A stretch of DNA of 17,506 nucleotides from a virus (IMGVR_UViG_3300029873_000373); one strand, 5' to 3'. Positions 1 through 17,506 are shown, counted from the stretch's first letter. The notes: generated by a model from the letters alone, not told the origin. Made by a program: numbers and translations.

Positions 1-1083
1 ATGAAAAAATTAACAGTGGCAATTTCTGCTGTAGCTGCATCAGTACTGATGGCGATGTCTGCTCAGGCAGCTGAAATTTATAATAAAGACAGTAACAAGC
101 TGGATCTGTACGGGAAAGTTAATGCTAAGCACTATTTCTCCTCTAATGATGCAGATGATGGTGATACTACTTATGCCCGTCTTGGCTTCAAAGGTGAAAC
201 CCAAATCAACGATCAACTGACTGGTTTCGGTCAGTGGGAATATGAATTCAAAGGCAACCGCGCTGAATCTCAAGGTTCCTCCAAAGATAAAACCCGTCTT
301 GCCTTCGCTGGCCTGAAATTCGGTGACTACGGCTCAATCGATTACGGCCGTAACTACGGTGTAGCATACGACATCGGTGCGTGGACTGACGTTCTGCCAG
401 AATTCGGTGGCGATACCTGGACCCAAACAGATGTGTTCATGACTGGTCGCACCACTGGTGTTGCAACTTATCGTAACAACGACTTCTTTGGTCTGGTTGA
501 TGGTCTGAACTTTGCTGCTCAGTATCAGGGTAAAAATGACCGCACTGACGTAACTGAAGCTAATGGTGATGGTTTCGGTTTCTCCACTACTTATGAGTAT
601 GAAGGATTCGGTGTAGGTGCAACCTATGCTAAATCTGACCGCACTAATAATCAGGTTATCTACGGTAACAACAGCCTGAATGCATCTGGTCAAAATGCTG
701 AAGTATGGGCAGCTGGTCTGAAATATGATGCGAACAACATCTATCTGGCTACCACCTATTCTGAAACCCAGAACATGACTGTTTTTGGTAATAACCATAT
801 TGCCAACAAAGCACAAAACTTCGAAGTAGTTGCACAATATCAGTTCGACTTCGGTCTGCGTCCGTCCGTTGCTTACCTGCAATCTAAAGGAAAAGACTTG
901 GGTGCGTGGGGTGATCAGGACCTGGTTGAATATATTGATGTAGGTGCAACCTATTACTTCAACAAAAATATGTCCACTTTTGTTGATTACAAAATCAACC
1001 TGATTGATAAGAGCGATTTCACGAAAGCATCTGGCGTTGCTACCGATGATATCGTTGCTGTAGGTATGGTTTACCAGTTCTAA
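1..1083 (+). CDS. nmpC: Outer-membrane general porin (NmpC/Lc/OmpD-like), phage-encoded moron
   Basis: 360-aa ORF; N-terminal signal peptide ending AQA-AEIY; typical 16-strand porin features ([14 protein letters not shown], C-terminal ...VGMVYQF ending in Phe); sits next to Q as in DLP12. Symbol is from recollection of the NmpC sequence, not a search. Confidence 0.88.
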
Positions 1084-2714: not shown

Positions 2715-2972
2715 TCACGCAGTAAACTCCTTCACCAGCGTTTCAAACTGGCTTACCTGTCCTTCCAGTTCCGCCACGCAATCCACCAGCTCATCCACCG
2801 CCTTTTGTGTGCGGTGTTTTGCCTGCAGCAGATCACGAAGCGCCGGAGTAAGCTGCTTGCGGAGCGTATCTTTTTTCACGCTCGTTTTTTCCATCTGTTC
2901 AGCACAACGAAGCATCTCCTGCGCCTGCCGACGAAGTTGTTCCGGTGAAACAGTGATTGTTCTGTTGTTCAA
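2715..2972 (-). CDS. Hypothetical small phage protein (85 aa)
   Basis: ORF with TTG start overlapping the helicase stop (TTGA); GGAG 8-9 nt upstream; helical-looking sequence; function unknown. Confidence 0.45.
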   Translation of the reverse strand: MNNRTITVSPEQLRRQAQEMLRCAEQMEKTSVKKDTLRKQLTPALRDLLQAKHRTQKAVDELVDCVAELEGQVSQFETLVKEFTA

Positions 2973-4369
2973 AATAAACGCTCCGTTTTACTGCCCGACA
3001 TGCGGTTATTGCTGTATCTGCGCGGATTGCCCGGCGTCATGGGTGTGGAAAGAACCCGGGCACTCTCCTGGTCCACAGGCAGAAAATGTCCGTTATGAAA
3101 ACGCCGGTAAATGGTCCCGAGTGTGCCATTACGCTGTTTCGTGATGTTGATTTCTGCTATGCCTCTGGCCTGTGTATCCGGGTTATACACCTCATCCCTG
3201 TAAAGCATCAGAATGATGTCGGCATCAGCCTCTATTTCCCCGGAGTTTTTCAGGTCTGAGTTCATGGGACGTTTATTGGGTCTGGATTCCACGCCTCGGG
3301 AGAGCTGGCTCAGAGCAATCAGCGGGAAACCGCCGGATTTTGCCAGGCTTTTAAGTCCCTTTGAGATTTCCCCCACAGCAAGGTCGTGACGCCCCGTGCT
3401 GCGGGTTTTAATCAGACCGAGGTAATCGACCACCACCAGCGCCGTTTCCGGGTGTTTCATCCGGTGGTGCTTCGTGGTTGCACATATCTCATCAATGGTC
3501 AGGTTTGCCTGATCCACCATCCAGATATTACGCCCCGTCATTCGTCCCACGCCCTGCGAGAAACGCGCCCAGTCTTCATCTTCAAAACGGGCAACAGACT
3601 TAAGACGGGATACCGGCATTCCACCGGCAGCAGACACCATACGTTCACCAATCTGGATGTTCGCCATCTCCATGGTGAACAGAAGCACGCCATGCCCCTG
3701 CTCAGTCACCTTGTCGATGATGTCCAGCGCAAGTTCGGTTTTCCCCATCGAAGGACGGGCGGCAATGAATACCAGGTCACCGGGCTCCATACCGCCCGTT
3801 TTTGCGTCCAGTTCATCAATACCGGTCATCAGCGCCCTGGATTTCTCCAGTCCCTGATTGCGGCATTCAACACGGTCGACCACTTCCGGAAGGACATCAT
3901 CAATGTGAACCGGCTGAATGACGCCCTTTCCGGTCGACAGTGAGGCCATCATGTTCTGCACATCCTTCAGGGCATCCTCGGCTGCTTCACAGGTATACGC
4001 ATCACGTAAATTCTGTAATGCTTCAGTCAGTGTTTTTTCTGCATCGCGCAGTGCGGCATTGCGCCGCAACGCTGCGACATAGTGCTCCAGTGAAGACTTC
4101 ACCCAGGTTTTGCGTCCGGTGTCGGTAATCACCGGGGCAAGTTCCGGCATCTCATTGCACAGCAGTACGGGGTCAATGACGCCGGATATGCGAGCCTGTC
4201 TGCAAATCCCCGCGTAAATATCCCGGTACTGACGCACAAAAAATACATCCGCCGGAAGTGTGGCCAGAATATCCATCACTTCCGGATCGGCCCCACGCAG
4301 AAAAAACGCACCGATGACAGCGCCTTCCAGGTCATCGTTACGCCATGCCGGGGTGTTCTGGCTGGTCAT
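2969..4369 (-). CDS. Replicative DNA helicase, DnaB family (phage-encoded)
   Basis: 466 aa; Walker A in DnaB context (FIAARPSMGKTELALD); N-terminal DnaB-like helical domain; start ATGA-overlaps the stop of the upstream loader gene. Confidence 0.9.
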   Translation of the reverse strand: MTSQNTPAWRNDDLEGAVIGAFFLRGADPEVMDILATLPADVFFVRQYRDIYAGICRQARISGVIDPVLLCNEMPELAPVITDTGRKTWVKSSLEHYVAALRRNAALRDAEKTLTEALQNLRDAYTCEAAEDALKDVQNMMASLSTGKGVIQPVHIDDVLPEVVDRVECRNQGLEKSRALMTGIDELDAKTGGMEPGDLVFIAARPSMGKTELALDIIDKVTEQGHGVLLFTMEMANIQIGERMVSAAGGMPVSRLKSVARFEDEDWARFSQGVGRMTGRNIWMVDQANLTIDEICATTKHHRMKHPETALVVVDYLGLIKTRSTGRHDLAVGEISKGLKSLAKSGGFPLIALSQLSRGVESRPNKRPMNSDLKNSGEIEADADIILMLYRDEVYNPDTQARGIAEINITKQRNGTLGTIYRRFHNGHFLPVDQESARVLSTPMTPGNPRRYSNNRMSGSKTERLF

Positions 4370-5265
4370 GCGGCAACACCTCCGATACGAGAACGGTAGC
4401 TGGGCCAGTTAAACGACAACCAGTTGCGCCCGCCATCGGTGATCCTGTCGGCAATCCGGGGACTGATGAACGCCCACAATTCTTCCGGTGAAAGGTTGCT
4501 GATCAGGATAGTTGGCAAAATACCCTCATACCGGGCATTGATAATTTCCTGCAAAATGGCCATTTCAGCCGCACTGCCAAACTGAACGCCGACTTCGTCG
4601 ACAATCAGCAAATCCAGTGACGCATAATGCTCAATGACGTCATCCGCTGTTTTTTCACTGTCATTCCGCCAGCAGTTTTTCACAGCCCGGGTAAGGCGCA
4701 TCACGTCGGTGATCTCCACACTGGCCAGATAGTTACGGATGATGTGTTTTGCCATTGATACCGCCAGATGATTTTTCCCGGTACCGCAACTGCCGGTCAT
4801 AACAAGACTGGTACCGTTCTCCAGCATATCTGGCCAGTTCTCCGCATAGCGGCGACAGGCCGCAAGATTTCTGGCTGCGTCAGGATTAACCTCCAGATAA
4901 TTATCAAACTCGCAGTCCCGAAAACGCAGAGCAATTCCGGCGTTATCAGTCAGTTCTTCCGCCTTGAGGGACGACAGTTCCATGGTCAAATCACTGGCCT
5001 CAGCGATCAAGCAGTCAGGGCAGCATGAAATTTTTTCTCTGTCCTCGCCATTACGATCGATCCACACCAGTATATGCGTACGATATTTACCGTGTTTTTC
5101 GCAATATCCGCGACCTTCACGCATCAGGCAGGAACGATAAGGCCATGGCTTTTCGCCCTTCTGAGCAAATGCAATCTCTGCCCGTAACTCATCCATTTCT
5201 GCCCGTAACTCATCCATTCGCGCCTGTAGTCTTGTTTGTTTCTCACGTTGGTCAATCGTCATCAT
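4366..5265 (-). CDS. DnaC-like helicase loader / IstB-type AAA+ ATPase
   Basis: Walker A (TGSCGTGKNHLAVS) and Walker B (LLIVDEVG). The track starts at GTG 5274, but ATG 5265 has better SD spacing (GAGGTG-N6-ATG). Contains a 21-bp perfect tandem duplication (MDELRAE x2). Confidence 0.85.
   Translation of the reverse strand: MMTIDQREKQTRLQARMDELRAEMDELRAEIAFAQKGEKPWPYRSCLMREGRGYCEKHGKYRTHILVWIDRNGEDREKISCCPDCLIAEASDLTMELSSLKAEELTDNAGIALRFRDCEFDNYLEVNPDAARNLAACRRYAENWPDMLENGTSLVMTGSCGTGKNHLAVSMAKHIIRNYLASVEITDVMRLTRAVKNCWRNDSEKTADDVIEHYASLDLLIVDEVGVQFGSAAEMAILQEIINARYEGILPTILISNLSPEELWAFISPRIADRITDGGRNWLSFNWPSYRSRIGGVAA
5177..5218. repeat. Perfect 21-bp tandem duplication (TCTGCCCGTAACTCATCCATT x2) inside the DnaC-like gene
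   Basis: Two identical adjacent 21-mers at 5177-5197 and 5198-5218; in frame (7-aa repeat MDELRAE). Confidence 0.9.
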
Positions 5266-5275
5266 CGCTGTCACC

Positions 5276-6268
5276 TCAGAATGTCAATTTGTTACTGGAT
5301 TTACCGAATTTGTCAGACATGGCTCCCAGGCCAGCCAGGACATCGACCTGTCGCTGTCGCCCACCTCCGTGAGCGGCTGGCTGTTGCCAGTAATCTTCGA
5401 AGTGACGATCGGGTCCAAAGAACGTCGCAGCCTGCTTCACGAACTGTGTGCCGGTATTTCCTGTAGCACGTACCCAGGCGGCATACCGCTTCACGCCATC
5501 AAGCATGGTCTCCGGTTTTATTCCCTCCCTGATACGGGCTTTCCAGGCTTTGAAGGCTGCTGACTTGGAATTGCCACCAGCACGTTTGGGATATTCCTGC
5601 CAGGCCTGTTCAAATTCCGGTGAATATTCCTGTCGGGCAGAACGCGCTGGCGCAGACGCGTCAGCGGATGCATCAATAGTGTTTTTAGTCTCCGTTGTAA
5701 TCTCTGTAGTAATCTCTGTATTTGTATCAACATTCGGCGTATCCCCTGTTCCGTTATGACGTCGGGGGGTGTTCCGTTTTAACGTAATAGCTGTATCGCT
5801 GATTGCATTATTGCTGTTACTTTCTGGCGAAACAGAAGAAGGTGTGGTGATGGCCGCAATTGCCTGTGGGTTGATCCCGACAAACAAAATATTGCTGCAT
5901 TTCACCCCATCGAGCATTTCCACCGTGCGTAAATCCAGAGTAATAAACCCTGCATCGCGCAGACGCTTCAGCGCATCTGCGGTTTCCCTTTTCCCGAAAC
6001 CAAACTGCTCAGCAAACGCCTGGTAGCTTCTTTGCAGTTTGTCGCCCTGAAAACGCTTGCGATATCCCAGCAACGCTCCGGTGTGCTCATCCCTGACCTC
6101 TGTCGGGCGGTACCAGTAAACGATCTCTGAAAGCAGAGCGATAGCCGTCGCATCCGGACGCCCACTGGGTAGTCGAATATATTTCCACCAGTTCGCAGGT
6201 GTAACATTGCCGGAAATATTAATTTGACCAATAGCCATAACTTCCGGTGTGGGGGCGTAACGGCTCAT
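5276..6268 (-). CDS. Phage replication initiator (lambda O-like replisome organiser)
   Basis: 330 aa; strong SD AAGGAGGT before ATG 6268; N-terminal winged-helix-like domain; central low-complexity linker (TEITTEITTE) encoded by iteron-like DNA repeats; immediately upstream of the DnaC-like and DnaB-like genes. Confidence 0.65.
   Translation of the reverse strand: MSRYAPTPEVMAIGQINISGNVTPANWWKYIRLPSGRPDATAIALLSEIVYWYRPTEVRDEHTGALLGYRKRFQGDKLQRSYQAFAEQFGFGKRETADALKRLRDAGFITLDLRTVEMLDGVKCSNILFVGINPQAIAAITTPSSVSPESNSNNAISDTAITLKRNTPRRHNGTGDTPNVDTNTEITTEITTETKNTIDASADASAPARSARQEYSPEFEQAWQEYPKRAGGNSKSAAFKAWKARIREGIKPETMLDGVKRYAAWVRATGNTGTQFVKQAATFFGPDRHFEDYWQQPAAHGGGRQRQVDVLAGLGAMSDKFGKSSNKLTF
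5697..5720. repeat. Iteron-like 12-bp tandem direct repeat (GTAATCTCTGTA x2) inside the initiator gene; candidate origin element
   Basis: Two perfect 12-mers at 5697-5708 and 5709-5720 with related flanking partial copies; located in the inter-domain linker of the O-like gene, as lambda ori is in O. Confidence 0.45.
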
Positions 6269-6785: not shown

Positions 6786-6976
6786 GGACGCACCTCCGCC
6801 GTAGTTACGTATTTAACCGGGCTACCTTTCATTGAGATGGTTTCACACATCTCTGCCGCTTTCAGTTCCGCTGTTTTTCTGGATTTATAGCGACGGTGCC
6901 AGACAGATACATCCGTGCGAACTGATACATCGTTTCTGTATTCCGTAGTGGAGATGATGATTTCGTAACTAATCAT
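6782..6976 (-). CDS. Hypothetical small phage protein (64 aa)
   Basis: ATG 6976 preceded by AAGGAGGT; ATGA overlap with the Rha-like gene stop. Confidence 0.45.
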   Translation of the reverse strand: MISYEIIISTTEYRNDVSVRTDVSVWHRRYKSRKTAELKAAEMCETISMKGSPVKYVTTAEVRP

Positions 6977-7833
6977 GGGCGAACCTCCTTGTCAGAACCA
7001 TTCAGCCTGGAATCAACAAGTGCAGCGCCAAAAACAGCATCACCAACACGGTCGTACAGTTTGCTAGCCAGCGGAGATTCAACGGCCTTAAGCATTGGAT
7101 AAAGCTGGCTTGTCCAGATTTGATGGATTTCACGCAAATGCAGGTATACGCCTCTGGCGTTTCGTGCGACAGCTGACATATCAGACGCATCGGCACCTGA
7201 TAAACTCTTCTCCATCAGGTTAAAGGCGTTGATGTATGCCTCTTTGAACCGGGCAGCACGTTTACCAGTGAAGCCCATGGCAAGAAACGCAAAACCGTCG
7301 CGGGTGATTTGGTAACAAGGGAGCTTGCGTGTACCACCGTTCGGTTGATTTACCGAAATCGATGTCTCCGCAAAATTGCGGGCACAAAACTCAGGGGAAC
7401 AATCCAGAGTGCGGATCTTTTTCAGCACATCGTCATGACGCTTGGAGAAGAAGTTGGCAACAGCCAAAGAAGTGGTAACGGCCTGGCCGTTGTCAATGGT
7501 GATTTCAGGTTGAGTGAGGGCTGGGATCGTAGCCATGATGGCAGCCTCCGTTGACAGTGAAAAACTTCCACCACCGGAAACGCCAATTTCACTGGTGGTG
7601 AACTGGACGGGGTTGGCGTAACCGGCGTCAACGGAGACCGGCGCACCTTTCGGTGCCCCCGCCCAGCCCACCATAATCTGGATGTGAGCAAATGCGGACG
7701 ATAAAAAAGACGCTGGCGCGTCATACATCGCCGTTGACAATTTCAGGACGCCAATCCCGGCACCCGCTTTATAAGGTGCGGAGACAGTGTAACGTCCCGG
7801 AATTGCAGAATCAATATGCTGGTGGCGGATCAT
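6973..7833 (-). CDS. Rha-family phage regulatory protein with a ~99-aa N-terminal module of unknown function
   Basis: Rha-like core ITIDNGQAVTTSLAVANFFSKRHDDVLKKI ... TRDGFAFLAMGFTGKRAARFKEAYINAFN; ATG 7833 has SD GGGAGGTG. An in-frame internal ATG at 7536 with SD GGAGG lies exactly at the module/Rha junction. Confidence 0.7.
   Translation of the reverse strand: MIRHQHIDSAIPGRYTVSAPYKAGAGIGVLKLSTAMYDAPASFLSSAFAHIQIMVGWAGAPKGAPVSVDAGYANPVQFTTSEIGVSGGGSFSLSTEAAIMATIPALTQPEITIDNGQAVTTSLAVANFFSKRHDDVLKKIRTLDCSPEFCARNFAETSISVNQPNGGTRKLPCYQITRDGFAFLAMGFTGKRAARFKEAYINAFNLMEKSLSGADASDMSAVARNARGVYLHLREIHQIWTSQLYPMLKAVESPLASKLYDRVGDAVFGAALVDSRLNGSDKEVRP
7537..7833. repeat. Copy 1 of a ~300-bp duplicated coding module (N-terminal domain of the first Rha paralog)
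   Basis: Near-identical DNA to 8193-8492, e.g. shared CCCGCTTTATAAGGTGCGGAGACAGTGTAACGTCCCG and GACGATAAAAAAGACGCTGGCGCGTCATA. Confidence 0.85.
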
Positions 7834-8492
7834 AGGTGCACCTCCCGTTGATTACGACGGAACGCGGAGTGACCCTGGACGGTTTCAGCCTCATGGAATG
7901 CTTCAATACAGCTCTCGTAGTACCGCATTGTGCGCAGACTTAACCCAAGCTGAAGCATCATCAGACCATCAAGGGTGATGTAATAACCACGCAGGGAGTC
8001 ACCGTAGATGTGATAAGTACCCGGTATGAAATTGCGGGTAAAAAACCCGCGTGAGCAGTTCAGATACTCGATTTTGTCAACGATGTTCTGGTGCATGCGC
8101 TTGAAATGGCAGGCAACATGCAGGGAGAAAATAACGGCCTTGCCGTTGACGACTTCGATTTTTAGGAATGGGGAAGTTAGGACAGTAGCCATGATGGCAG
8201 CCTCCGTATGCAATGGATAACTTCCACCACCGGAGCTGCGAAACTCATGGGTGGTGAACTGAACAGGGTTCGCAGTACCGGCGCATACGGAAACCGGCGA
8301 GCCTTTCGGCTCCCCTGCCCAGCCCACCATAATTCTGGCGTGCGTGAGCGCGGACGATAAAAAAGACGCTGGCGCGTCATATATCGCCGTATGCAATTCC
8401 GGGCTGCGACCCCCGGCACCCGCTTTATAAGGTGCGGAGACAGTGTAACGTCCCGAAATTGCAGAATCAATATTTGGTCTTGAAATGATCAT
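7830..8492 (-). CDS. Rha-family regulatory protein paralog (divergent Rha domain) carrying the same N-terminal module
   Basis: N-terminal 100 aa about 75% identical to the adjacent gene; Rha-like IEVVNGKAVIFSLHVACHFKRMHQNIVDKI. ATG 8492 has no SD; internal ATG 8192 has GGAGG and may be the true start. Confidence 0.6.
   Translation of the reverse strand: MIISRPNIDSAISGRYTVSAPYKAGAGGRSPELHTAIYDAPASFLSSALTHARIMVGWAGEPKGSPVSVCAGTANPVQFTTHEFRSSGGGSYPLHTEAAIMATVLTSPFLKIEVVNGKAVIFSLHVACHFKRMHQNIVDKIEYLNCSRGFFTRNFIPGTYHIYGDSLRGYYITLDGLMMLQLGLSLRTMRYYESCIEAFHEAETVQGHSAFRRNQREVHL
8193..8492. repeat. Copy 2 of the ~300-bp duplicated coding module
   Basis: Same as above; differences are substitutions only, many at third codon positions of the minus-strand frame. 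Confidence 0.85.
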
Positions 8493-8576
8493 ATAGCTGC
8501 TGATATCTTTAGAACTGTTCTTGGATGTTTCGGAGCCGTTTTATGCGAAACAGCTCCCCGTTATTGATGTTGAGTG

Positions 8577-8601
8577 AGCCGGGTTACTCCCGGCTTTTTT
8601 T
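8577..8601 (+). terminator. Intrinsic-terminator-like hairpin plus T7 run, oriented for the plus strand, between minus-strand genes
   Basis: AGCCGGG-TTACT-CCCGGCT followed by TTTTTTT (8595-8601), abutting the stop of the 8601-9308 gene; on the minus strand the hairpin is preceded, not followed, by the A/U run. Confidence 0.5.
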
Positions 8602-9308
8602 CACCGCTGCCAACCAATAACCTGAAATAACCCCATTTTCGGGTGATACCAGCGAGTCCCTCGCGGTTCTGCTTCCTCCATAATCCGATAAAAAGCAGCC
8701 ATAAACGGTTCCACAGCAACAATTGCGCGACGTGACAACAATCCGTCCGGCGTCATGAACTCATGGGTGTCTGTAGGAATCTGATAGGCGTTCACCAGAT
8801 TGCGGCATTTATCATCTGACAAACCGGTTTTTGCTTTCAGTTGGCGATATCCGGCATAGCCCTCACGAATAGTGCCCTTTTTAATTTGCTCGACTGTTTC
8901 AGCAACGTGGCTGACTTTTTCTTCCACCTGAGTGATCCGTTTCTGTTGGCGAACGGCTTCAAGAGCCATCGCGGCAACCATTTCGATTTCGCTCATTGGC
9001 TTACGGATCTGTTCTTCCAGTTCGCGCCAGCGATCTACCAGGCGAGCTGTGAATTCAGGACAGAGCTGTGCGACGACAATGATGCTGTCGCGCTTACCTC
9101 GTTCACCTTCGAATACATACGCGCTAGAAAATCGGCGAGGCCCAAGTGATTGTTTATTCTCAATTTCCACAGTCTGTGGAAATTGGATGATTCCCTTTTT
9201 AGCCAGTGTTTCAATAGTTCTCTTAACACTATCTGGTCGGCTTCCCACCAGCTCTGCGATCTCAACGCTGGTCATGGATGCTTTGCCGTTAAAAATTGCG
9301 GTGTTCAT
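8601..9308 (-). CDS. Rha-family phage regulatory protein (antirepressor-like)
   Basis: 235 aa; N-terminal MTSVEIAELVGSRPDSVKRTIETLAKKGII fits the Rha-domain pattern; coiled-coil-like middle; SD AGGAGA before ATG 9308. Confidence 0.7.
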   Translation of the reverse strand: MNTAIFNGKASMTSVEIAELVGSRPDSVKRTIETLAKKGIIQFPQTVEIENKQSLGPRRFSSAYVFEGERGKRDSIIVVAQLCPEFTARLVDRWRELEEQIRKPMSEIEMVAAMALEAVRQQKRITQVEEKVSHVAETVEQIKKGTIREGYAGYRQLKAKTGLSDDKCRNLVNAYQIPTDTHEFMTPDGLLSRRAIVAVEPFMAAFYRIMEEAEPRGTRWYHPKMGLFQVIGWQR

Positions 9309-9532
9309 TGTTGGTCTCCTGTGGGCTTGTCATCTTCTGTATTCGCTAGACTTGGGTGTGTATATGGAATGCTCGGATCCAGATGACAAAGAATGGCAAC
9401 ATCCTCCGGAACACCTCGCGTTTTCCACTTTCCAACACCTTGACTGCCACGAGGCCTTCCTTTCTTTGGGAACCTGCGACCAATAGCGGCATTGGTTTTA
9501 AATTGAATTTTTAATATTTCATAAAGGGTCAT
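9305..9532 (-). CDS. Candidate first ORF of the early-right operon (75 aa, basic, no recognisable HTH)
   Basis: ATG 9532 lies about 30 nt downstream of the predicted PR start; ATGA overlap with the Rha gene; weak SD; low-complexity basic sequence, so it may be non-coding leader. Confidence 0.3.
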   Translation of the reverse strand: MTLYEILKIQFKTNAAIGRRFPKKGRPRGSQGVGKWKTRGVPEDVAILCHLDPSIPYTHPSLANTEDDKPTGDQQ

Positions 9533-9549
9533 TCTTTAGTCTCACGCCA

Positions 9550-9622
9550 GATACTTTGTTATCCAACGATGTTAACCATAGGAACCCAAAGTATCAAGAA
9601 ATTCTGTTACTTTAGTATCAAC
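9550..9622. promoter_or_regulatory. Rightward-operator/promoter-like region (divergent PR/PRM analogue) with repeated operator motif
   Basis: Motif CAAAGTATCAA at 9587-9597, TTTAGTATCAAC at 9611-9622 and inverted GATACTTTG at 9550-9558. Candidate minus-strand promoter: -35 TTGATA (rc of 9592-9597), 17-bp spacer, -10 TAACAT (rc of 9569-9574). Confidence 0.5.
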
Positions 9623-9643
9623 AGCCATGAGAGGAGAAGAAAA

Positions 9644-10300
9644 ATGAAGTCTTTAGGTGAACGTCTCATCAACGCACGGCAAAAAGCTGGGTTAACACAA
9701 GATGCGTTGGCTAAAAAAGCTGGGGTCACCAGAGTTGCAATAAGTAAAGCCGAGCAAGGCCTTACAAAAAGTTTCAACGGTGACACCCTTTTTAAAGTTG
9801 CAGCTGCACTGCGGTGTTCACCGCAGTGGCTTCAGAACGGAGATGAAAAAGATAAGCATTGGGAAAATAATGTTAAGAGCTGCCCACAGAGAGACACAGC
9901 ACACTCTTACCCTGTAATTAACTGGGTTCAGGCAGGATTATTCGCAACTTCTGGTGATGACTACAACATGTATGATCAGGATAATTGGAGGCATTCTGTA
10001 AAATACGCTGGTGAGAGGGGGTTCTGGCTGGAAGTGCACGGAGACTCAATGACTTCGCCCGTAGGAATAACATTTCCTGAAGGAATGTCGATCCTTGTCA
10101 ACCCAGATAAAGAAGTTTTTTCAGGGTGTTACGTCATCGCCAGAAAAAAATCCACCAATGAAGCAACATTCAAAAAATATATTTCTGACATGGGAAAGGC
10201 GTTTCTAAAGCCCCTTAATCCACAATATCCAATCATAGAAATGGACAATGATTGCGAAATAGTAGGTGTTGTGGTTGATGCCAGATGGGATATTTTCTGA
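9644..10300 (+). CDS. cI: CI-like prophage repressor (XRE-family HTH plus LexA/S24 peptidase-like C-terminal domain)
   Basis: 218 aa; SD GAGGAGAAG before ATG 9644; HTH LINARQKAGLTQDALAKKAGVTRVAISKAEQG; S24 catalytic context GDSM ... ATFKKY; divergent from the early-right operon. Confidence 0.9.
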   Translation: MKSLGERLINARQKAGLTQDALAKKAGVTRVAISKAEQGLTKSFNGDTLFKVAAALRCSPQWLQNGDEKDKHWENNVKSCPQRDTAHSYPVINWVQAGLFATSGDDYNMYDQDNWRHSVKYAGERGFWLEVHGDSMTSPVGITFPEGMSILVNPDKEVFSGCYVIARKKSTNEATFKKYISDMGKAFLKPLNPQYPIIEMDNDCEIVGVVVDARWDIF

Positions 10301-10338: not shown

Positions 10339-10386
10339 CCAAAGTATCAAAAATCACTTGCCACGACTTGATACCTTAGTTACCAT
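10339..10386 (+). promoter_or_regulatory. Leftward-operator/promoter-like region (PL/OL analogue)
   Basis: Same operator motif as the rightward region: CCAAAGTATCAA (10339-10350) and inverted TTGATACCTTAG (10368-10379). Candidate promoter -35 TTGCCA (10358-10363), 17-bp spacer, -10 TACCAT (10381-10386). Confidence 0.45.
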
Positions 10387-10417: not shown

Positions 10418-10921
10418 ATGATCAATAAAGCTACAACTCTTGACTGTCTCGAAGAACTGAAAAACCTCGGCAGCCTCATTACACTAATAGCAAAAGCAAC
10501 ACCTGATGCTACGCTCTCTAGCGATATAGAGTCATGCGCAGGACTGGCATGGGATATGACAAATAGCATATCCAGAAAGCTATCGTCAGCAATGCTTTTA
10601 CAGAACAAAAATTCTGCAATCAACAACCGTCTTCGCACCCAACGCGAAGCCTGCGGCTTAACAACCGCCGAACTCGCCAGGCTGCTCGATCTCGATGAAG
10701 AAATCATCATTCAGTGGGAGAGCGGAGAGTATGAACCAACCATCAGTATGCTTATCCCACTGGCAAATATTCTTGGCTGCGATCCGATGTGGCTGTTAAC
10801 TGGCGAGGTTACTCCTCCGGAGCAACCAAAAAGTGAGGAGCAGCAACACCATGACGCATCTCAACAAGTTTGCCCCTTATCTCGCGAAGCTCTTCTGCGG
10901 AAGAACCAATACCAATGGTGA
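10418..10921 (+). CDS. XRE-family HTH protein with ~70-aa N-terminal extension, in the position lambda N occupies
   Basis: 167 aa; SD TGAGGT before ATG 10418; HTH LRTQREACGLTTAELARLLDLDEEIIIQWESGEYEPTISMLIPLANILGCDPMWLLTGE; no arginine-rich N-like motif. Confidence 0.6.
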   Translation: MINKATTLDCLEELKNLGSLITLIAKATPDATLSSDIESCAGLAWDMTNSISRKLSSAMLLQNKNSAINNRLRTQREACGLTTAELARLLDLDEEIIIQWESGEYEPTISMLIPLANILGCDPMWLLTGEVTPPEQPKSEEQQHHDASQQVCPLSREALLRKNQYQW

Positions 10922-16192: not shown

Positions 16193-17506
16193 ATGGATAA
16201 AGTCAAATATCCAACAGGCGTCGAAAACCACGGCGGCACATTACGCATCTGGTTTAATTTTAAAGGTAAACGTGTCAGGGAAAATCTTGGTGTCCCTGAC
16301 ACTGCCAAGAACAGGAAGATCGCCGGGGAACTGCGGACATCAGTATGTTTTGCCATCCGCACAGGAAGCTTTGATTATGCTGCACAGTTCCCTGACTCCC
16401 CCAACCTTCAGGCTTTTGGGGTAAGTAAAAAAGAAATTACGGTGAAGGAACTTGAAGAAAAGTGGCTGGATCTGAAACGAATGGAAATCTCTGCAAATGC
16501 ATTCAATCGCTATGAATCCGTTGCAAGAACGATGGTTCCGAAAATTGGAGGCAGTAGACTGGTGTCATCGGTAACCAAAGAGGAATTGCTGTATATCAGG
16601 AAAGATTTGCTTACCGGGTATCAGAATTCAACGAAAAACAAAGTAGCAGCAAAAGGACGGAGCGTCGTTACTGTAAATTATTACATGACGACAATCGCTG
16701 GAATGTTTCAGTTTGCTGCAGATCACGGTTACTTAGAAGCAAATCCCTTCCAGGGAATTAAGCCTCTTAAAAGAGCCAGGGCAGAGCCAGATCCGCTAAC
16801 TCGTGACGAATTTATTCGCCTGATAGATGCTTGCCGACATCAGCAGACGAAAAACCTGTGGTCATTGGCTGTGTACACAGGAATGCGTCACGGTGAACTG
16901 GTCTCCCTGGCCTGGGAAGATATCGATCTGAAGGCAGGAACAATTACCATCAGGCGCAATTATACGAAACTTGGTGAGTTCACTCTACCGAAAACTGAAG
17001 CAAGCACAAACAGGGTTGTGCACCTTATCCAGCCCGCTATCAGTGTCCTGAAAAATCAGGCTGAAATGACAAGACTGGGTAAGCAGTACAACATCAAGGT
17101 GCAACTACGTGAATATGGACGTTCAGTGAACCATGAATGTACTTTCGTGTTTAACCCTCAAGTGGTTAGAAAAAGCGAACAGGTAGGTTTTGTCTACAAA
17201 GTCGATTCTGTAGGTGACTCATGGGAAACAGCCATTAAGCGTGCAGGGATCAGGCATCGAAAGGCATACCAGTCACGACACACTTATGCGTGCTGGTCAT
17301 TATCTGCCGGAGCAAACCCAAGCTTCATTGCCAGCCAGATGGGCCATGCAAGTGCCCAGATGGTATTCAATGTATACGGAGCATGGATGACTGACAGCAA
17401 TGCAGAACAGATCGCAATGCTGAATCAGAAGCTGACAGATTATGTCCCAATGATGCCCCATAGTCACCAAAGTGACACCAGAGGCTTATTAAAATCAGTA
17501 AGTTAA
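16193..17506 (+). CDS. int: Phage integrase, tyrosine site-specific recombinase
   Basis: 437 aa; SD GGAGG before ATG 16193; catalytic-domain signatures (TGMRHGEL, SRHTYACW, ASQMGHASAQMVFNVYGAWM); ends with TAA at the window edge. Confidence 0.93.
   Translation: MDKVKYPTGVENHGGTLRIWFNFKGKRVRENLGVPDTAKNRKIAGELRTSVCFAIRTGSFDYAAQFPDSPNLQAFGVSKKEITVKELEEKWLDLKRMEISANAFNRYESVARTMVPKIGGSRLVSSVTKEELLYIRKDLLTGYQNSTKNKVAAKGRSVVTVNYYMTTIAGMFQFAADHGYLEANPFQGIKPLKRARAEPDPLTRDEFIRLIDACRHQQTKNLWSLAVYTGMRHGELVSLAWEDIDLKAGTITIRRNYTKLGEFTLPKTEASTNRVVHLIQPAISVLKNQAEMTRLGKQYNIKVQLREYGRSVNHECTFVFNPQVVRKSEQVGFVYKVDSVGDSWETAIKRAGIRHRKAYQSRHTYACWSLSAGANPSFIASQMGHASAQMVFNVYGAWMTDSNAEQIAMLNQKLTDYVPMMPHSHQSDTRGLLKSVS

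Follow-up and report, generated by a model that had tools for sequence, protein, structure and literature searches.

The locus examined here raises the question of what follows the immunity switch in a lambdoid prophage whose early operon appeared to carry a row of Rha genes in place of cro. In the 17,506-nucleotide stretch of viral DNA that was analysed (IMGVR_UViG_3300029873_000373; hereafter the window), three consecutive ORFs occupy the minus strand at 6973–7833 (286 aa), 7830–8492 (220 aa) and 8601–9308 (235 aa), as the initial annotation had described. That annotation read them as a tandem array of three Rha-domain proteins, found no classic small HTH Cro, and proposed an atypical lysis-lysogeny circuit or a set of host-interference factors.

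The host element is a phiP27-like lambdoid prophage at yecE; phiP27 matches the window at 90% identity over 77% coverage. This prophage type is present in about 100–200 of 5,426 complete E. coli genomes, ST131 strains included. The segment 6973–9308 is the start of the rightward early operon, which here lies on the minus strand. The operon would read from PR through a Cro-like gene (75 aa) and an Ant-like gene (235 aa) into two cassettes, A and then B, with small ORFs and then the replication genes and Q downstream. It was borne out that Rha/antirepressor-type genes fill the interval from the cro position to the replication genes, and the data support the view that these genes form an extra regulatory layer on the CI/Cro switch. 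What had been taken for an array of three Rha genes is instead one Ant-like gene followed by two composite cassettes of RNA plus protein.

Domain content of the three ORFs

The ORFs and their short forms were evaluated against the curated Rha cut-offs of Pfam (PF09669, 29.9 bits) and TIGR02681 (45.95 bits). Among the three, only ORF 6973–7833 passed, with 95.1 and 88 bits, respectively; its short form, RhaB (187 aa; 6973–7536, minus strand), scored 96.3 and 89.4 bits. ORF 7830–8492 fell under both cut-offs (26.4 and 32.6 bits), as did its short form, RhaA (120 aa; 7830–8192, minus strand; 28.4 and 34.9 bits). Nevertheless, by sequence comparison ORF 7830–8492 is a clear paralogue of ORF 6973–7833: RhaA and RhaB are 36% identical (BLASTP E 2e-18). 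Both proteins are presumably antirepressors or DNA-binding regulators of the Bro/KilA-N/Rha network.

The third ORF (8601–9308, minus strand) has PHROG 63, 'anti-repressor Ant', as its best family (4e-46), and its homologue in phiP27, L14, is annotated Ant. Its winged-helix, Rha-like N-terminus scored 25.6 bits with Pfam Rha, under the 29.9 cut-off, and 24.8 bits with HTH_Crp_2; TIGR02681 gave no match, and BLASTP against RhaB returned an E value of 0.06. Judged by these profiles, the three ORFs are one firm Rha protein, one divergent Rha protein and one protein of the Ant type whose N-terminus is Rha-like. The Ant-like gene has no RNA module upstream.

A GC-rich hairpin followed by a T-run (8576–8604, plus strand; terminator scan) stands between the Ant-like gene and cassette A. 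Its orientation suits termination of plus-strand, antisense transcription, and a promoter-like site on the same strand (8480–8509) lies upstream of it.

The CI repressor and a Cro-like gene

A CI-type repressor gene (9644–10300, plus strand) is divergent from the minus-strand operon. The protein combines HTH_3 (Pfam, 53.8 bits) with Peptidase_S24 (78.5 bits) and matches PHROG 4, 'transcriptional repressor', at 2e-52; its PGAP homologue starts at the corresponding Met. The cI-cro intergenic control region (9533–9643, no strand assigned) was delineated from the promoter scan, the sequence and its repeats. It contains a minus-strand promoter resembling PR (-35 TTGATA at 9597–9592, -10 TAACAT at 9574–9569; promoter scan) and repeated AAAGTATC motifs, which are putative operators.

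The first gene of the rightward operon (9305–9532, minus strand) begins 111 bp from the cI start at 9644 and is divergent from cI. It encodes the 75-aa protein that had been set aside as dubious. The protein has 42 homologues and falls in the conserved family phrog_4749 (7e-49); its predicted fold is a Cro-like helix-turn-helix resembling solved Cro structures of the all-alpha P22/N15 type. On a Cro helix-turn-helix protein in 9309–9560, the sequence searches and the model diverge: the 75-aa protein had no Pfam match at E values up to 10 and no NCBIfam match, and its family profile matched no PDB sequence, whereas structure prediction returned the Cro-like fold. The stop codon of this gene overlaps the start of the Ant-like gene (ATGA), an arrangement by which the two appear to be translationally coupled. 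On the strength of the predicted fold, the prophage retains a conventional CI/Cro pair, so the Rha genes would be an added, RNA-gated layer and not a replacement for Cro.

Tandem cassettes and their RNA elements

The RNA elements of the two Rha ORFs lie in a 656-bp tandem direct repeat that spans the -35 hexamer of an internal promoter to the Shine-Dalgarno (SD) sequence and ATG of the Rha ORF. The alignment between the cassettes begins at the -35 hexamer and stops at GGAGGCTGCCATCATGGCTAC. Within the repeat, four Rfam matches occur in register, exceeding their gathering scores (45 for C4, RF01695; 50 for isrK, RF01394) by 9–38 bits. In each long ORF, the approximately 100 N-terminal codons that Pfam assigns to 'Ash' coincide with the isrK and C4 elements. 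The c4-a1b1 model (RF03163) remained below its gathering score within the window.

Each cassette opens with a putative promoter on the minus strand. In cassette A (8442–8470), the -35 TTGATT (8470–8465) and -10 TACACT (8447–8442) are separated by 17 nt, and the RNA 5' end is predicted at 8435. The same hexamers recur in cassette B (7786–7814; -35 at 7814–7809, -10 at 7791–7786), with a predicted 5' end at 7779. The TTGATT-17-TACACT arrangement matches 8 of 12 consensus positions and is absent from the promoter-scan list; its hexamers share register with those of Gifsy-1 PisrK and P4 PLE.

Downstream of each promoter lies an IsrK element, also called a seqA or a1b1-type RNA. IsrK-A (8359–8435, minus strand; RF01394, 58.8 bits) carries boxes a1, TCGCAG (8409–8404), and b1, GCATACGG (8394–8387), and ends in an intrinsic terminator (8378–8365 plus U-run; terminator scan). 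IsrK-B (7703–7779, minus strand; RF01394, 62.2 bits) has the same layout, with a1 TTGGCGT (7754–7748), b1 GTCAACGG (7738–7731) and a terminator at 7722–7709 plus U-run (terminator scan).

The C4 antisense RNAs, homologues of P4 CI, follow on the same strand and match RF01695 over its full length (1–87 of 87). C4-A (8247–8334; 83.3 bits, E 2e-15) has a predicted folding energy of -46.2 kcal/mol and presents b', CCGTATGC (8290–8283), in the hairpin-2 loop, followed by a', CTGCGA (8275–8270). C4-B (7591–7678; 81.4 bits, E 6e-15) carries b' CCGTTGAC (7634–7627) and a' ACGCCAA (7619–7613). Its stems depart from those of C4-A by compensatory changes, with an A-U to G-C exchange in the outer stem and two swapped pairs in hairpin 1. 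The minus-strand target regions complete the cassettes. In A (8190–8243), a2 is TCGCAG (8241–8236) and b2 is GCATACGGAGG (8211–8201), ahead of the ATG at 8192–8190; in B (7534–7586), a2 is TTGGCGT (7586–7580) and b2 is GTCAACGGAGG (7555–7545), ahead of the ATG at 7536–7534. In both cassettes, b2 overlaps the SD.

An obvious tandem repeat in which one product is short and below the curated Rha cut-offs could reflect decay, with rhaA a truncated pseudogene and cassette B alone functional. We consider this barely credible. Cassette A retains every RNA element, with scores on a par with those of B, and its boxes are internally matched. Moreover, the 120-aa form is the commonest effector in related cassettes (20 of 53 open-frame modules; 16 distinct protein sequences), and the sole cassette of phiP27, L16, is of this type. 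The duplication is not recent, because the two Rha proteins share only 36% identity.

Box complementarity and covariation

The differences between cassettes A and B cluster in two boxes, each of which occurs three times per cassette: once in IsrK, once in a loop of C4 and once where ribosomes would bind ahead of the Rha ORF. The box sequences are matched within each cassette and differ between the two; each C4 should therefore act on its own cassette only. RNAduplex gave -41.3 kcal/mol for the cassette A target with the C4-A core versus -29.6 with the C4-B core, and -44.3 kcal/mol for the cassette B target with its cognate core versus -29.5 with the non-cognate one. Overall, C4 cores paired with target or IsrK at -37 to -44 kcal/mol for cognate and -28 to -30 kcal/mol for non-cognate combinations.

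The arrangement extends beyond the window. Of 100 unique related cassettes taken from viral contigs, 94 repeat both boxes downstream, b2 adjoining the start codon; these comprise 9 a-alleles and 18 b-alleles in 27 combinations. Covariation was evaluated in a gap-free alignment of 45 sequences (44 distinct related cassettes), using slid pairings as controls. Pairing across the C4 stems, a'-a2 and b'-b2 together reached 99.9%, against 31–45% in the corresponding slid controls, and 13 pairs had changed on both sides. Specifically, the long closing stem and two hairpins of C4 (27 pairs) were 100% paired, with 4 pairs changed on both sides; a'-a2 (7 pairs) was 99.7% paired with 4 covarying; and b'-b2 (10 pairs), in which b2 overlaps GGAGG, was 99.8% paired with 5 covarying. 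Pairing of the IsrK boxes with C4 was 95.8% for a1-a' and 100% for b1-b', with 9 covarying pairs jointly. The slid controls were 31–47% paired, versus 96–100% for the actual box pairings.

Related cassettes occur in about a quarter of complete E. coli genomes, at up to 6 places per genome, and cassettes that share a genome never have both boxes in common (both boxes differ in the window and in L010, box a only in L060). The box alleles, highly diverse and freely recombined on a conserved scaffold, show a pattern that immunity specificities would be expected to produce. These observations raise the prospect that the cassettes serve mainly in interactions between phages rather than in the phage's own lysis-lysogeny decision, the two cassettes providing two specificity classes. 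Resident C4 would then silence in trans the same-allele Rha, Ant or Kil genes of incoming phages and satellites, and the IsrK of an incoming relative would titrate resident C4, switching on the resident Rha gene. P1/P7 immI and P4 immunity are trans-acting systems, which counts in favour of this proposal, as does the action of Gifsy-1 IsrK in trans (PMC4825925). However, the embedding of the cassettes in the PR operon and the eta-like coupling described below point to participation in the lytic programme of the phage itself. We regard a mainly inter-phage function as unlikely; it is compatible with the RNA-immunity reading developed below and does not exclude it.

In a bolder and likewise doubtful form of the proposal, the two non-cross-reacting alleles would act as a two-channel RNA 'barcode' for recognising kin phages. 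If so, resident C4 would silence Bro/Rha/Kil-type effectors of incoming same-allele elements, and same-allele IsrK, whether incoming or co-resident, would titrate C4 and fire the resident Rha gene. The 27 combinations among 94 Enterobacterales prophage cassettes would then constitute an immunity-type code under diversifying selection, Ash would be a dual-use sequence, and translation from PR transcripts would be the override switch.

The long 'Ash-Rha' ORFs

The long ORFs 7830–8492 and 6973–7833 begin 57 and 54 nt upstream of the respective predicted RNA 5' ends and share their reading frame with the short ORFs. Pfam Phage_ASH matches both, as well as P4 Eta. In cassette B, the upstream ATG (7833) is preceded by a GGAGG SD, and the rhaA stop codon overlaps it (ATGA). 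The corresponding ATG of cassette A (8492) is devoid of an SD and follows the preceding gene after a 108-nt gap, uncoupled. By analogy, the long 'Ash-Rha' ORFs appear to be the counterpart of P4 eta.

These features bear on whether the ORFs are simply ordinary Rha-family genes, with 'Ash' a genuine domain, the RNA matches incidental, and Cro/CII replaced in an atypical switch. PGAP and Pfam annotate the ORFs in this way, surveys of Stx phages describe 'Rha/Ash' proteins beside cI (PMC8951638), and the cassette B start has the strong SD and stop overlap noted above. In addition, the long frame is open in 62 of 94 related cassettes, and the 'Ash' part may therefore have a role as protein. In the other 32, however, the frame is closed 15–36 nt upstream of the start codon and the RNAs are intact. 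Stems and three-way box pairing in the RNAs are maintained by compensatory changes that alter amino acids non-conservatively, and the same sequences are experimentally defined RNAs in P4 and Gifsy-1. Together with the margins of the Rfam scores and the predicted presence of a Cro-fold protein, these observations make an ordinary-protein origin of the whole pattern very unlikely.

A model for RNA-gated expression of Rha

With a probability of about 0.75, each cassette is an RNA-immunity module of the P4/P1 type that gates a Rha-domain protein, beside Cro-like and Ant-like genes. From 5' to 3', the module would comprise a sigma-70 promoter, the 77-nt IsrK/seqA RNA with its terminator, the C4/CI-type RNA, the a2 and b2 boxes, and the ATG.

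By analogy with P1 c4, P4 CI and Gifsy-1 IsrK, PR would be shut by CI in the lysogen while the internal promoters fire. Most transcripts would end as IsrK, and those that read through would be processed to C4. Pairing of C4 with a2 and b2 would mask the ribosome-binding site and, because the site is hidden, prevent Rha synthesis; premature termination is a probable consequence of this block. Since the boxes of IsrK are the same as those of the target, IsrK would compete for C4 and open the structure, and the ratio of IsrK to C4 would therefore gate Rha expression. On PR-derived transcripts, ribosomes starting at the upstream ATG would pass through the C4 structure and the IsrK terminator and so override the RNA block, yielding an N-terminally extended Rha protein and allowing transcription onward to the replication genes. 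This eta-like override is clearest in cassette B; it is weakly supported in cassette A because the ATG at 8492 has no SD and is uncoupled.

This model has implications for annotation. ORFs beside cI that are labelled 'ash family protein' or 'Rha/Ash' conceal a putative promoter and two regulatory RNAs, which is probably why the Ash 'domain' has been assigned no function; the habit stands corrected for this prophage type and for many Stx phages. The heterospecific cassette pair and the allele table also provide natural compensatory variants for dissecting C4/IsrK specificity, and the allele set could be used to study cross-talk among co-resident prophages, toxin-converting ones included.

Comparison with known systems

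The circuit that had been called atypical is of the kind known from the RNA immunity modules of P4, P1 immI and Gifsy-1 IsrK, and the cassettes are homologous to those of P4 and Gifsy-1. The mechanisms described for these systems are not alike: translation is blocked in P1, transcription terminates in P4, and IsrK activates in Gifsy-1. One of the closest systems is the P4 immunity region (PLE - seqA - CI RNA - seqC/timm, inside the eta/kil ORF), which has the same isrK (seqA) and C4 (CI) Rfam elements, identically ordered and enclosed by a long ORF whose start lies upstream of the internal promoter. P4 Eta matches Pfam Phage_ASH at 82 bits, as the cassette ORFs do, whereas epsilon is unmatched, and the SD-ATG block GGAGGCTGCCATCATGGCTAC is identical and invariant between the P4 kil start and the Rha starts. 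The logic of eta and kil is summarized in PMC10111431. P4 differs in that its effector is the 65-aa Kil instead of a Rha-domain protein of 120 or 187 aa, in its isrK-to-C4 spacing, and in being a satellite; here, two tandem cassettes of different specificity follow cro in a lambdoid PR operon, ahead of the replication genes.

Gifsy-1 likewise has isrK, then C4 (STnc1160/orf45), then an antirepressor-type gene, and an intrinsic terminator that allows partial read-through marks the end of its IsrK. The isrK, C4 and c4-a1b1 models all match upstream of anrP. In that system, IsrK in trans raises orf45/anrP translation about 140-fold (PMC4825925), and a processed RNA of ~80 nt, STnc1160, was detected (PMC4825925; Hershko-Shalev et al. 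2016). AnrP is an ORF6N protein rather than a Rha protein and is unrelated to RhaA and RhaB (BLASTP E 2.1), so its function is not transferable to them. Furthermore, orf45 ends at the anrP start (AUGA), whereas the equivalent frame here is fused in-frame to rha; and the Gifsy-1 locus is a single cassette downstream of Q, in contrast to the pair here, which precedes the replication genes.

The immI locus of P1/P7 (c4 RNA - icd - ant) shares a C4-family antisense RNA co-transcribed with its target. In P1/P7, the a' and b' loops of C4 pair with a2 and b2 where ribosomes bind ahead of the first downstream ORF; Citron and Schuster (1990, cited in PMC7313666) reportedly traced P1/P7 heteroimmunity to matched box changes. 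In place of the icd-ant pair, the Rha ORF itself bears the targeted ribosome-binding site here, boxes a1 and b1 lie upstream in a terminated sRNA of the IsrK type, and the context is lambdoid, with an SOS-cleavable CI.

The Stx phages 'Eru6/7/9' and phiP27 (L14–L16) have the same gene neighbourhood, with Rha/'Ash' ORFs beside cI/cro; phiP27 has the single cassette L16, of the 120-aa type, compared with two in the window. A survey of Stx phages described Rha or Rha/Ash proteins adjoining cI; there, Ash figures as a protein domain without known function and the RNAs go unmentioned (PMC8951638). The locus in the window is probably a duplicated member of an already known RNA-immunity system, with Rha proteins as its effectors.

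Gene map of the prophage

A gene map of the window was built from Pfam and PHROGs. The window is a lambdoid prophage, close kin of yecE-integrated Escherichia coli prophages, including those of ST131 strains (98% identity), and its nearest sequenced phage is the Stx2e phage phiP27 (77% coverage, 90% identity). The minus strand encodes a Q antiterminator (1272-1670), a DUF968/HNH protein (1673-2668), a DnaB helicase (2969-4369), a DnaC-like loader (4366-5274) and a replication initiator (5276-6268). Three small ORFs lie between the last of these and position 6973, followed by the region of interest (6973-9308) and a 75-aa ORF (9305-9532). The plus strand encodes a CI-type repressor (9644-10300), a CII-like HTH protein (10418-10921; phrog_4836, 1e-40), ea22-type genes and, beyond them, an integrase (16193-17506). 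Based on this map, the operon that the initial annotation called rightward is on the minus strand.

The CII-like regulator is in the leftward operon, left of cI, and not in the usual place after cro. At 1-1083 (plus strand), a porin gene of the Gram-negative type, complete and scoring 510 bits against PF00267, adjoins the Q antiterminator gene and is convergent with it. This gene has the look of a porin moron carried by the phage; in the closest E. coli relative, DUF262, HEPN nuclease and cytosine methyltransferase genes take its place.

The 75-aa protein

The view that an array of Rha genes replaces Cro proved largely wrong: a Cro candidate is present, and the "Ash" halves of two of the ORFs coincide with RNA elements. 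The 75-aa ORF belongs to phrog_4749 (7e-49), and its 42 homologues, from Escherichia, Klebsiella, Yersinia, Providencia, Photorhabdus and Xenorhabdus, share 24 invariant positions. Sequence searches with Pfam (E up to 10) and NCBIfam, and a comparison of an HMM profile with PDB sequences, returned nothing useful, and fold comparison was the one informative route to identification. An AlphaFold2 model built from the homologue alignment was a small helical bundle, confident over residues 1-60 (mean pLDDT 83), whose top Foldseek match was the Xfaso-1/Pfl-6 Cro hybrid (E 0.94, probability 0.66). The position also fits Cro: the gene comes first behind a PR-like promoter (TTGATA-17-TAACAT, 9597-9569), at a distance of 111 bp from cI. 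The 75-aa protein is thus probably the Cro of this phage; its conservation, Cro-like predicted fold and position contradict the claim that Cro is missing.

Copies of the motif AAAGTATCAA flank cI, one at 9587-9597 and one at 10339-10349, and a further copy, inverted, occupies 9550-9558. These are candidate operator half-sites of OR and OL. A (CACAAAA)x4 tandem repeat immediately follows the cI stop codon.

Rha membership of the three ORFs

The observation of three consecutive Rha genes was partly confirmed. The ORFs are present as described at 6973-9308, but membership of the family is firm, by Pfam and TIGR02681, for ORF 6973-7833 only (95 and 88 bits, respectively). ORF 7830-8492 scored under both curated Rha cut-offs, yet is a clear paralogue of ORF 6973-7833 (E 2e-18). 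ORF 8601-9308 matched PHROG 63 (4e-46), reached 25.6 bits against Pfam Rha (cut-off 29.9) and had no match in a TIGR02681 search; by these profile scores, it is better described as Ant-like than as Rha. The RefSeq (PGAP) labels for the three ORFs are "Rha family phage regulatory protein", "ash family protein" and "Rha family transcriptional regulator".

RNA elements within the "Ash" halves

The locus belongs, as a duplicated and heterospecific member, to a well-known family of RNA-immunity cassettes that standard protein annotation hides. Rfam placed two isrK and two C4 elements, all over the gathering score, within the first ~100 codons of both ORF 7830-8492 and ORF 6973-7833. The two sets form a direct repeat with a spacing of 656 bp. 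When the units, cassettes A (upstream) and B, were aligned, homology began at the -35 hexamer of a predicted promoter (TTGATT-17-TACACT, ending seven bases upstream of the RNA 5' end) and stopped just past GGAGGCTGCCATCATGGCTAC, the Shine-Dalgarno (SD) sequence and ATG of the Rha-coding part (8192-8190 in A, 7536-7534 in B). Given these limits, each repeat comprises the predicted promoter, IsrK with an intrinsic terminator, C4, and the ribosome-binding site and start of a Rha ORF. The ORFs so begun encode RhaA (120 aa) and RhaB (187 aa). The IsrK terminator, found by a terminator scan, is invariant, and the C4 stems of the two copies differ in a compensatory manner.

Pfam PF10554 (Phage_ASH) and the PGAP "ash family protein" correspond to the conceptual translation of a promoter, IsrK/seqA and C4/CI RNA (window 6973-8492, minus strand; P4 1669-2313, minus strand). 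The Phage_ASH model matched the P4 Eta ORF (82 bits) but gave no match to epsilon, a PF25738 protein, although PF10554 has been taken as an epsilon marker in at least one paper. A survey of Stx phages published in 2022 reported proteins termed "Rha" and "Rha/Ash" beside cI, with Ash lacking a known function (PMC8951638), and both RNAs are already annotated in one GenBank Stx-phage record. The notion that annotation alone created the long ORFs was softened by the precedent of P4 eta and by the frame staying open in 62 of the 94 related cassettes.

Antisense to the operon, at 8480-8604 (plus strand) in the space separating the Ant-like gene from cassette A, a promoter-like TTGAAA-18-TATCTT with an upstream TG is followed ~70 nt on by a strong hairpin and T-run. 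An antisense sRNA resembling oop may be made here, or the hairpin may just be a terminator shielding the operon from antisense transcription. A gene-junction motif, GGAGGTGCnnCnATGATCCGCCAC, containing an SD sequence, an ATGA overlap and an "MIRH" N-terminus, occurs on the minus strand at three gene boundaries, 7845-7822, 6797-6774 and 6988-6965, with 75-88% identity. Cassette B may have entered through this motif as a recombination joint.

Specificity boxes

Differences between the cassettes cluster in two short boxes, each occurring three times per cassette: in IsrK (a1, b1), in C4 (a', b') and ahead of the rha ATG (a2, b2). In this order, box a reads TCGCAG, CTGCGA and TCGCAG in cassette A, and TTGGCGT, ACGCCAA and TTGGCGT in cassette B. 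Box b reads GCATACGG, CCGTATGC and GCATACGGAGG in cassette A, and GTCAACGG, CCGTTGAC and GTCAACGGAGG in cassette B; its downstream copy overlaps the SD sequence. Predicted duplexes of the C4 core were -37 to -44 kcal/mol for cognate pairs versus -28 to -30 kcal/mol for non-cognate pairs. When RNAduplex was run over the whole window to find further C4 targets, none that was credible emerged, the output being mostly GC-rich noise and self-antisense matches.

Related cassettes

An exact-word scan of viral contigs identified 120 loci, representing 100 unique modules. Both boxes were repeated 3' of C4, beside a start codon, in 94 of these, which together carried 9 a-alleles and 18 b-alleles in 27 combinations. 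When 45 cassettes were aligned without gaps, pairing reached 99.9% over the C4 stems together with a'-a2 and b'-b2, with 13 pairs changed on both sides, as compared to 31-45% pairing in slid controls. None of 500 shuffles reached the observed covariation. The a1-a' and b1-b' pairings were 96-100% paired, with nine covarying pairs. The downstream effectors included Rha, Bro-N, KilA-N, ORF6N and Kil-like peptides of 62-64 aa, among others; with the effector so varied, the RNA unit is a portable gate.

The number of cassettes varies among relatives. PhiP27 has one. Two viral contigs, L010 and L060, have two each, like the window; these are 1312 and 656 bp apart, respectively, and differ in at least one box. 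The L060 cassettes share box b and have different boxes a, suggesting that a mismatch in a single box may suffice for insulation.

Proposed working of the cassettes

In the lysogen, the internal promoters would give IsrK, and read-through and processing would give C4. Pairing of C4 with a2 and b2 would mask the rha SD sequence, such that Rha is not made, and IsrK, having the boxes of the target, would counteract C4. After induction, PR transcripts would reach the cassettes and the long ORFs would be translated through the RNA elements, as for P4 eta, overriding the block and the IsrK terminators toward the replication genes. Cassette B is the clearest case for such translation: its ATG at 7833 is preceded by GGAGG and overlaps the rhaA stop codon. 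The override is less secure in cassette A because its upstream ATG is without an SD sequence and uncoupled to the preceding gene.

Comparison with P4 and Gifsy-1

The main value of these results is corrective, concerning what "Ash" means; the locus and its relatives also supply naturally occurring specificity variants that experiments can draw on. In Gifsy-1, isrK, c4-a1b1 and C4 lie upstream of anrP. IsrK ends at its own terminator with partial read-through, an ~80-nt processed RNA, STnc1160, arises from downstream of it, and IsrK in trans raises orf45/anrP translation ~140-fold (PMC4825925). In this locus (34131-34329, minus strand), Rfam placed C4 (69 bits) exactly on the published "orf45"/STnc1160 region and c4-a1b1 on isrK. 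The pairing of IsrK with orf45 described for Gifsy-1 is thus the one between a1b1 and C4 in the P1/P4 systems. AnrP, which at 187 aa matches RhaB in length, was rejected as its orthologue (BLASTP E 2.1). Because AnrP is an unrelated ORF6N protein, its function is not transferable to the Rha proteins of the window.

In P4, the same two Rfam elements lie within the eta ORF, as in the window cassettes, and kil starts at the invariant SD-ATG block that the latter share. A constitutive promoter lies within eta, termination requires CI and seqA, and Kil is a truncated product; full-length Eta is made only from an upstream promoter, its translation being coupled to the gene before it and blocking termination (PMC10111431). 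The promoter hexamers of the window cassettes are in the same register as those of PisrK of Gifsy-1 and PLE of P4. Overall, the locus lies close to these known systems.
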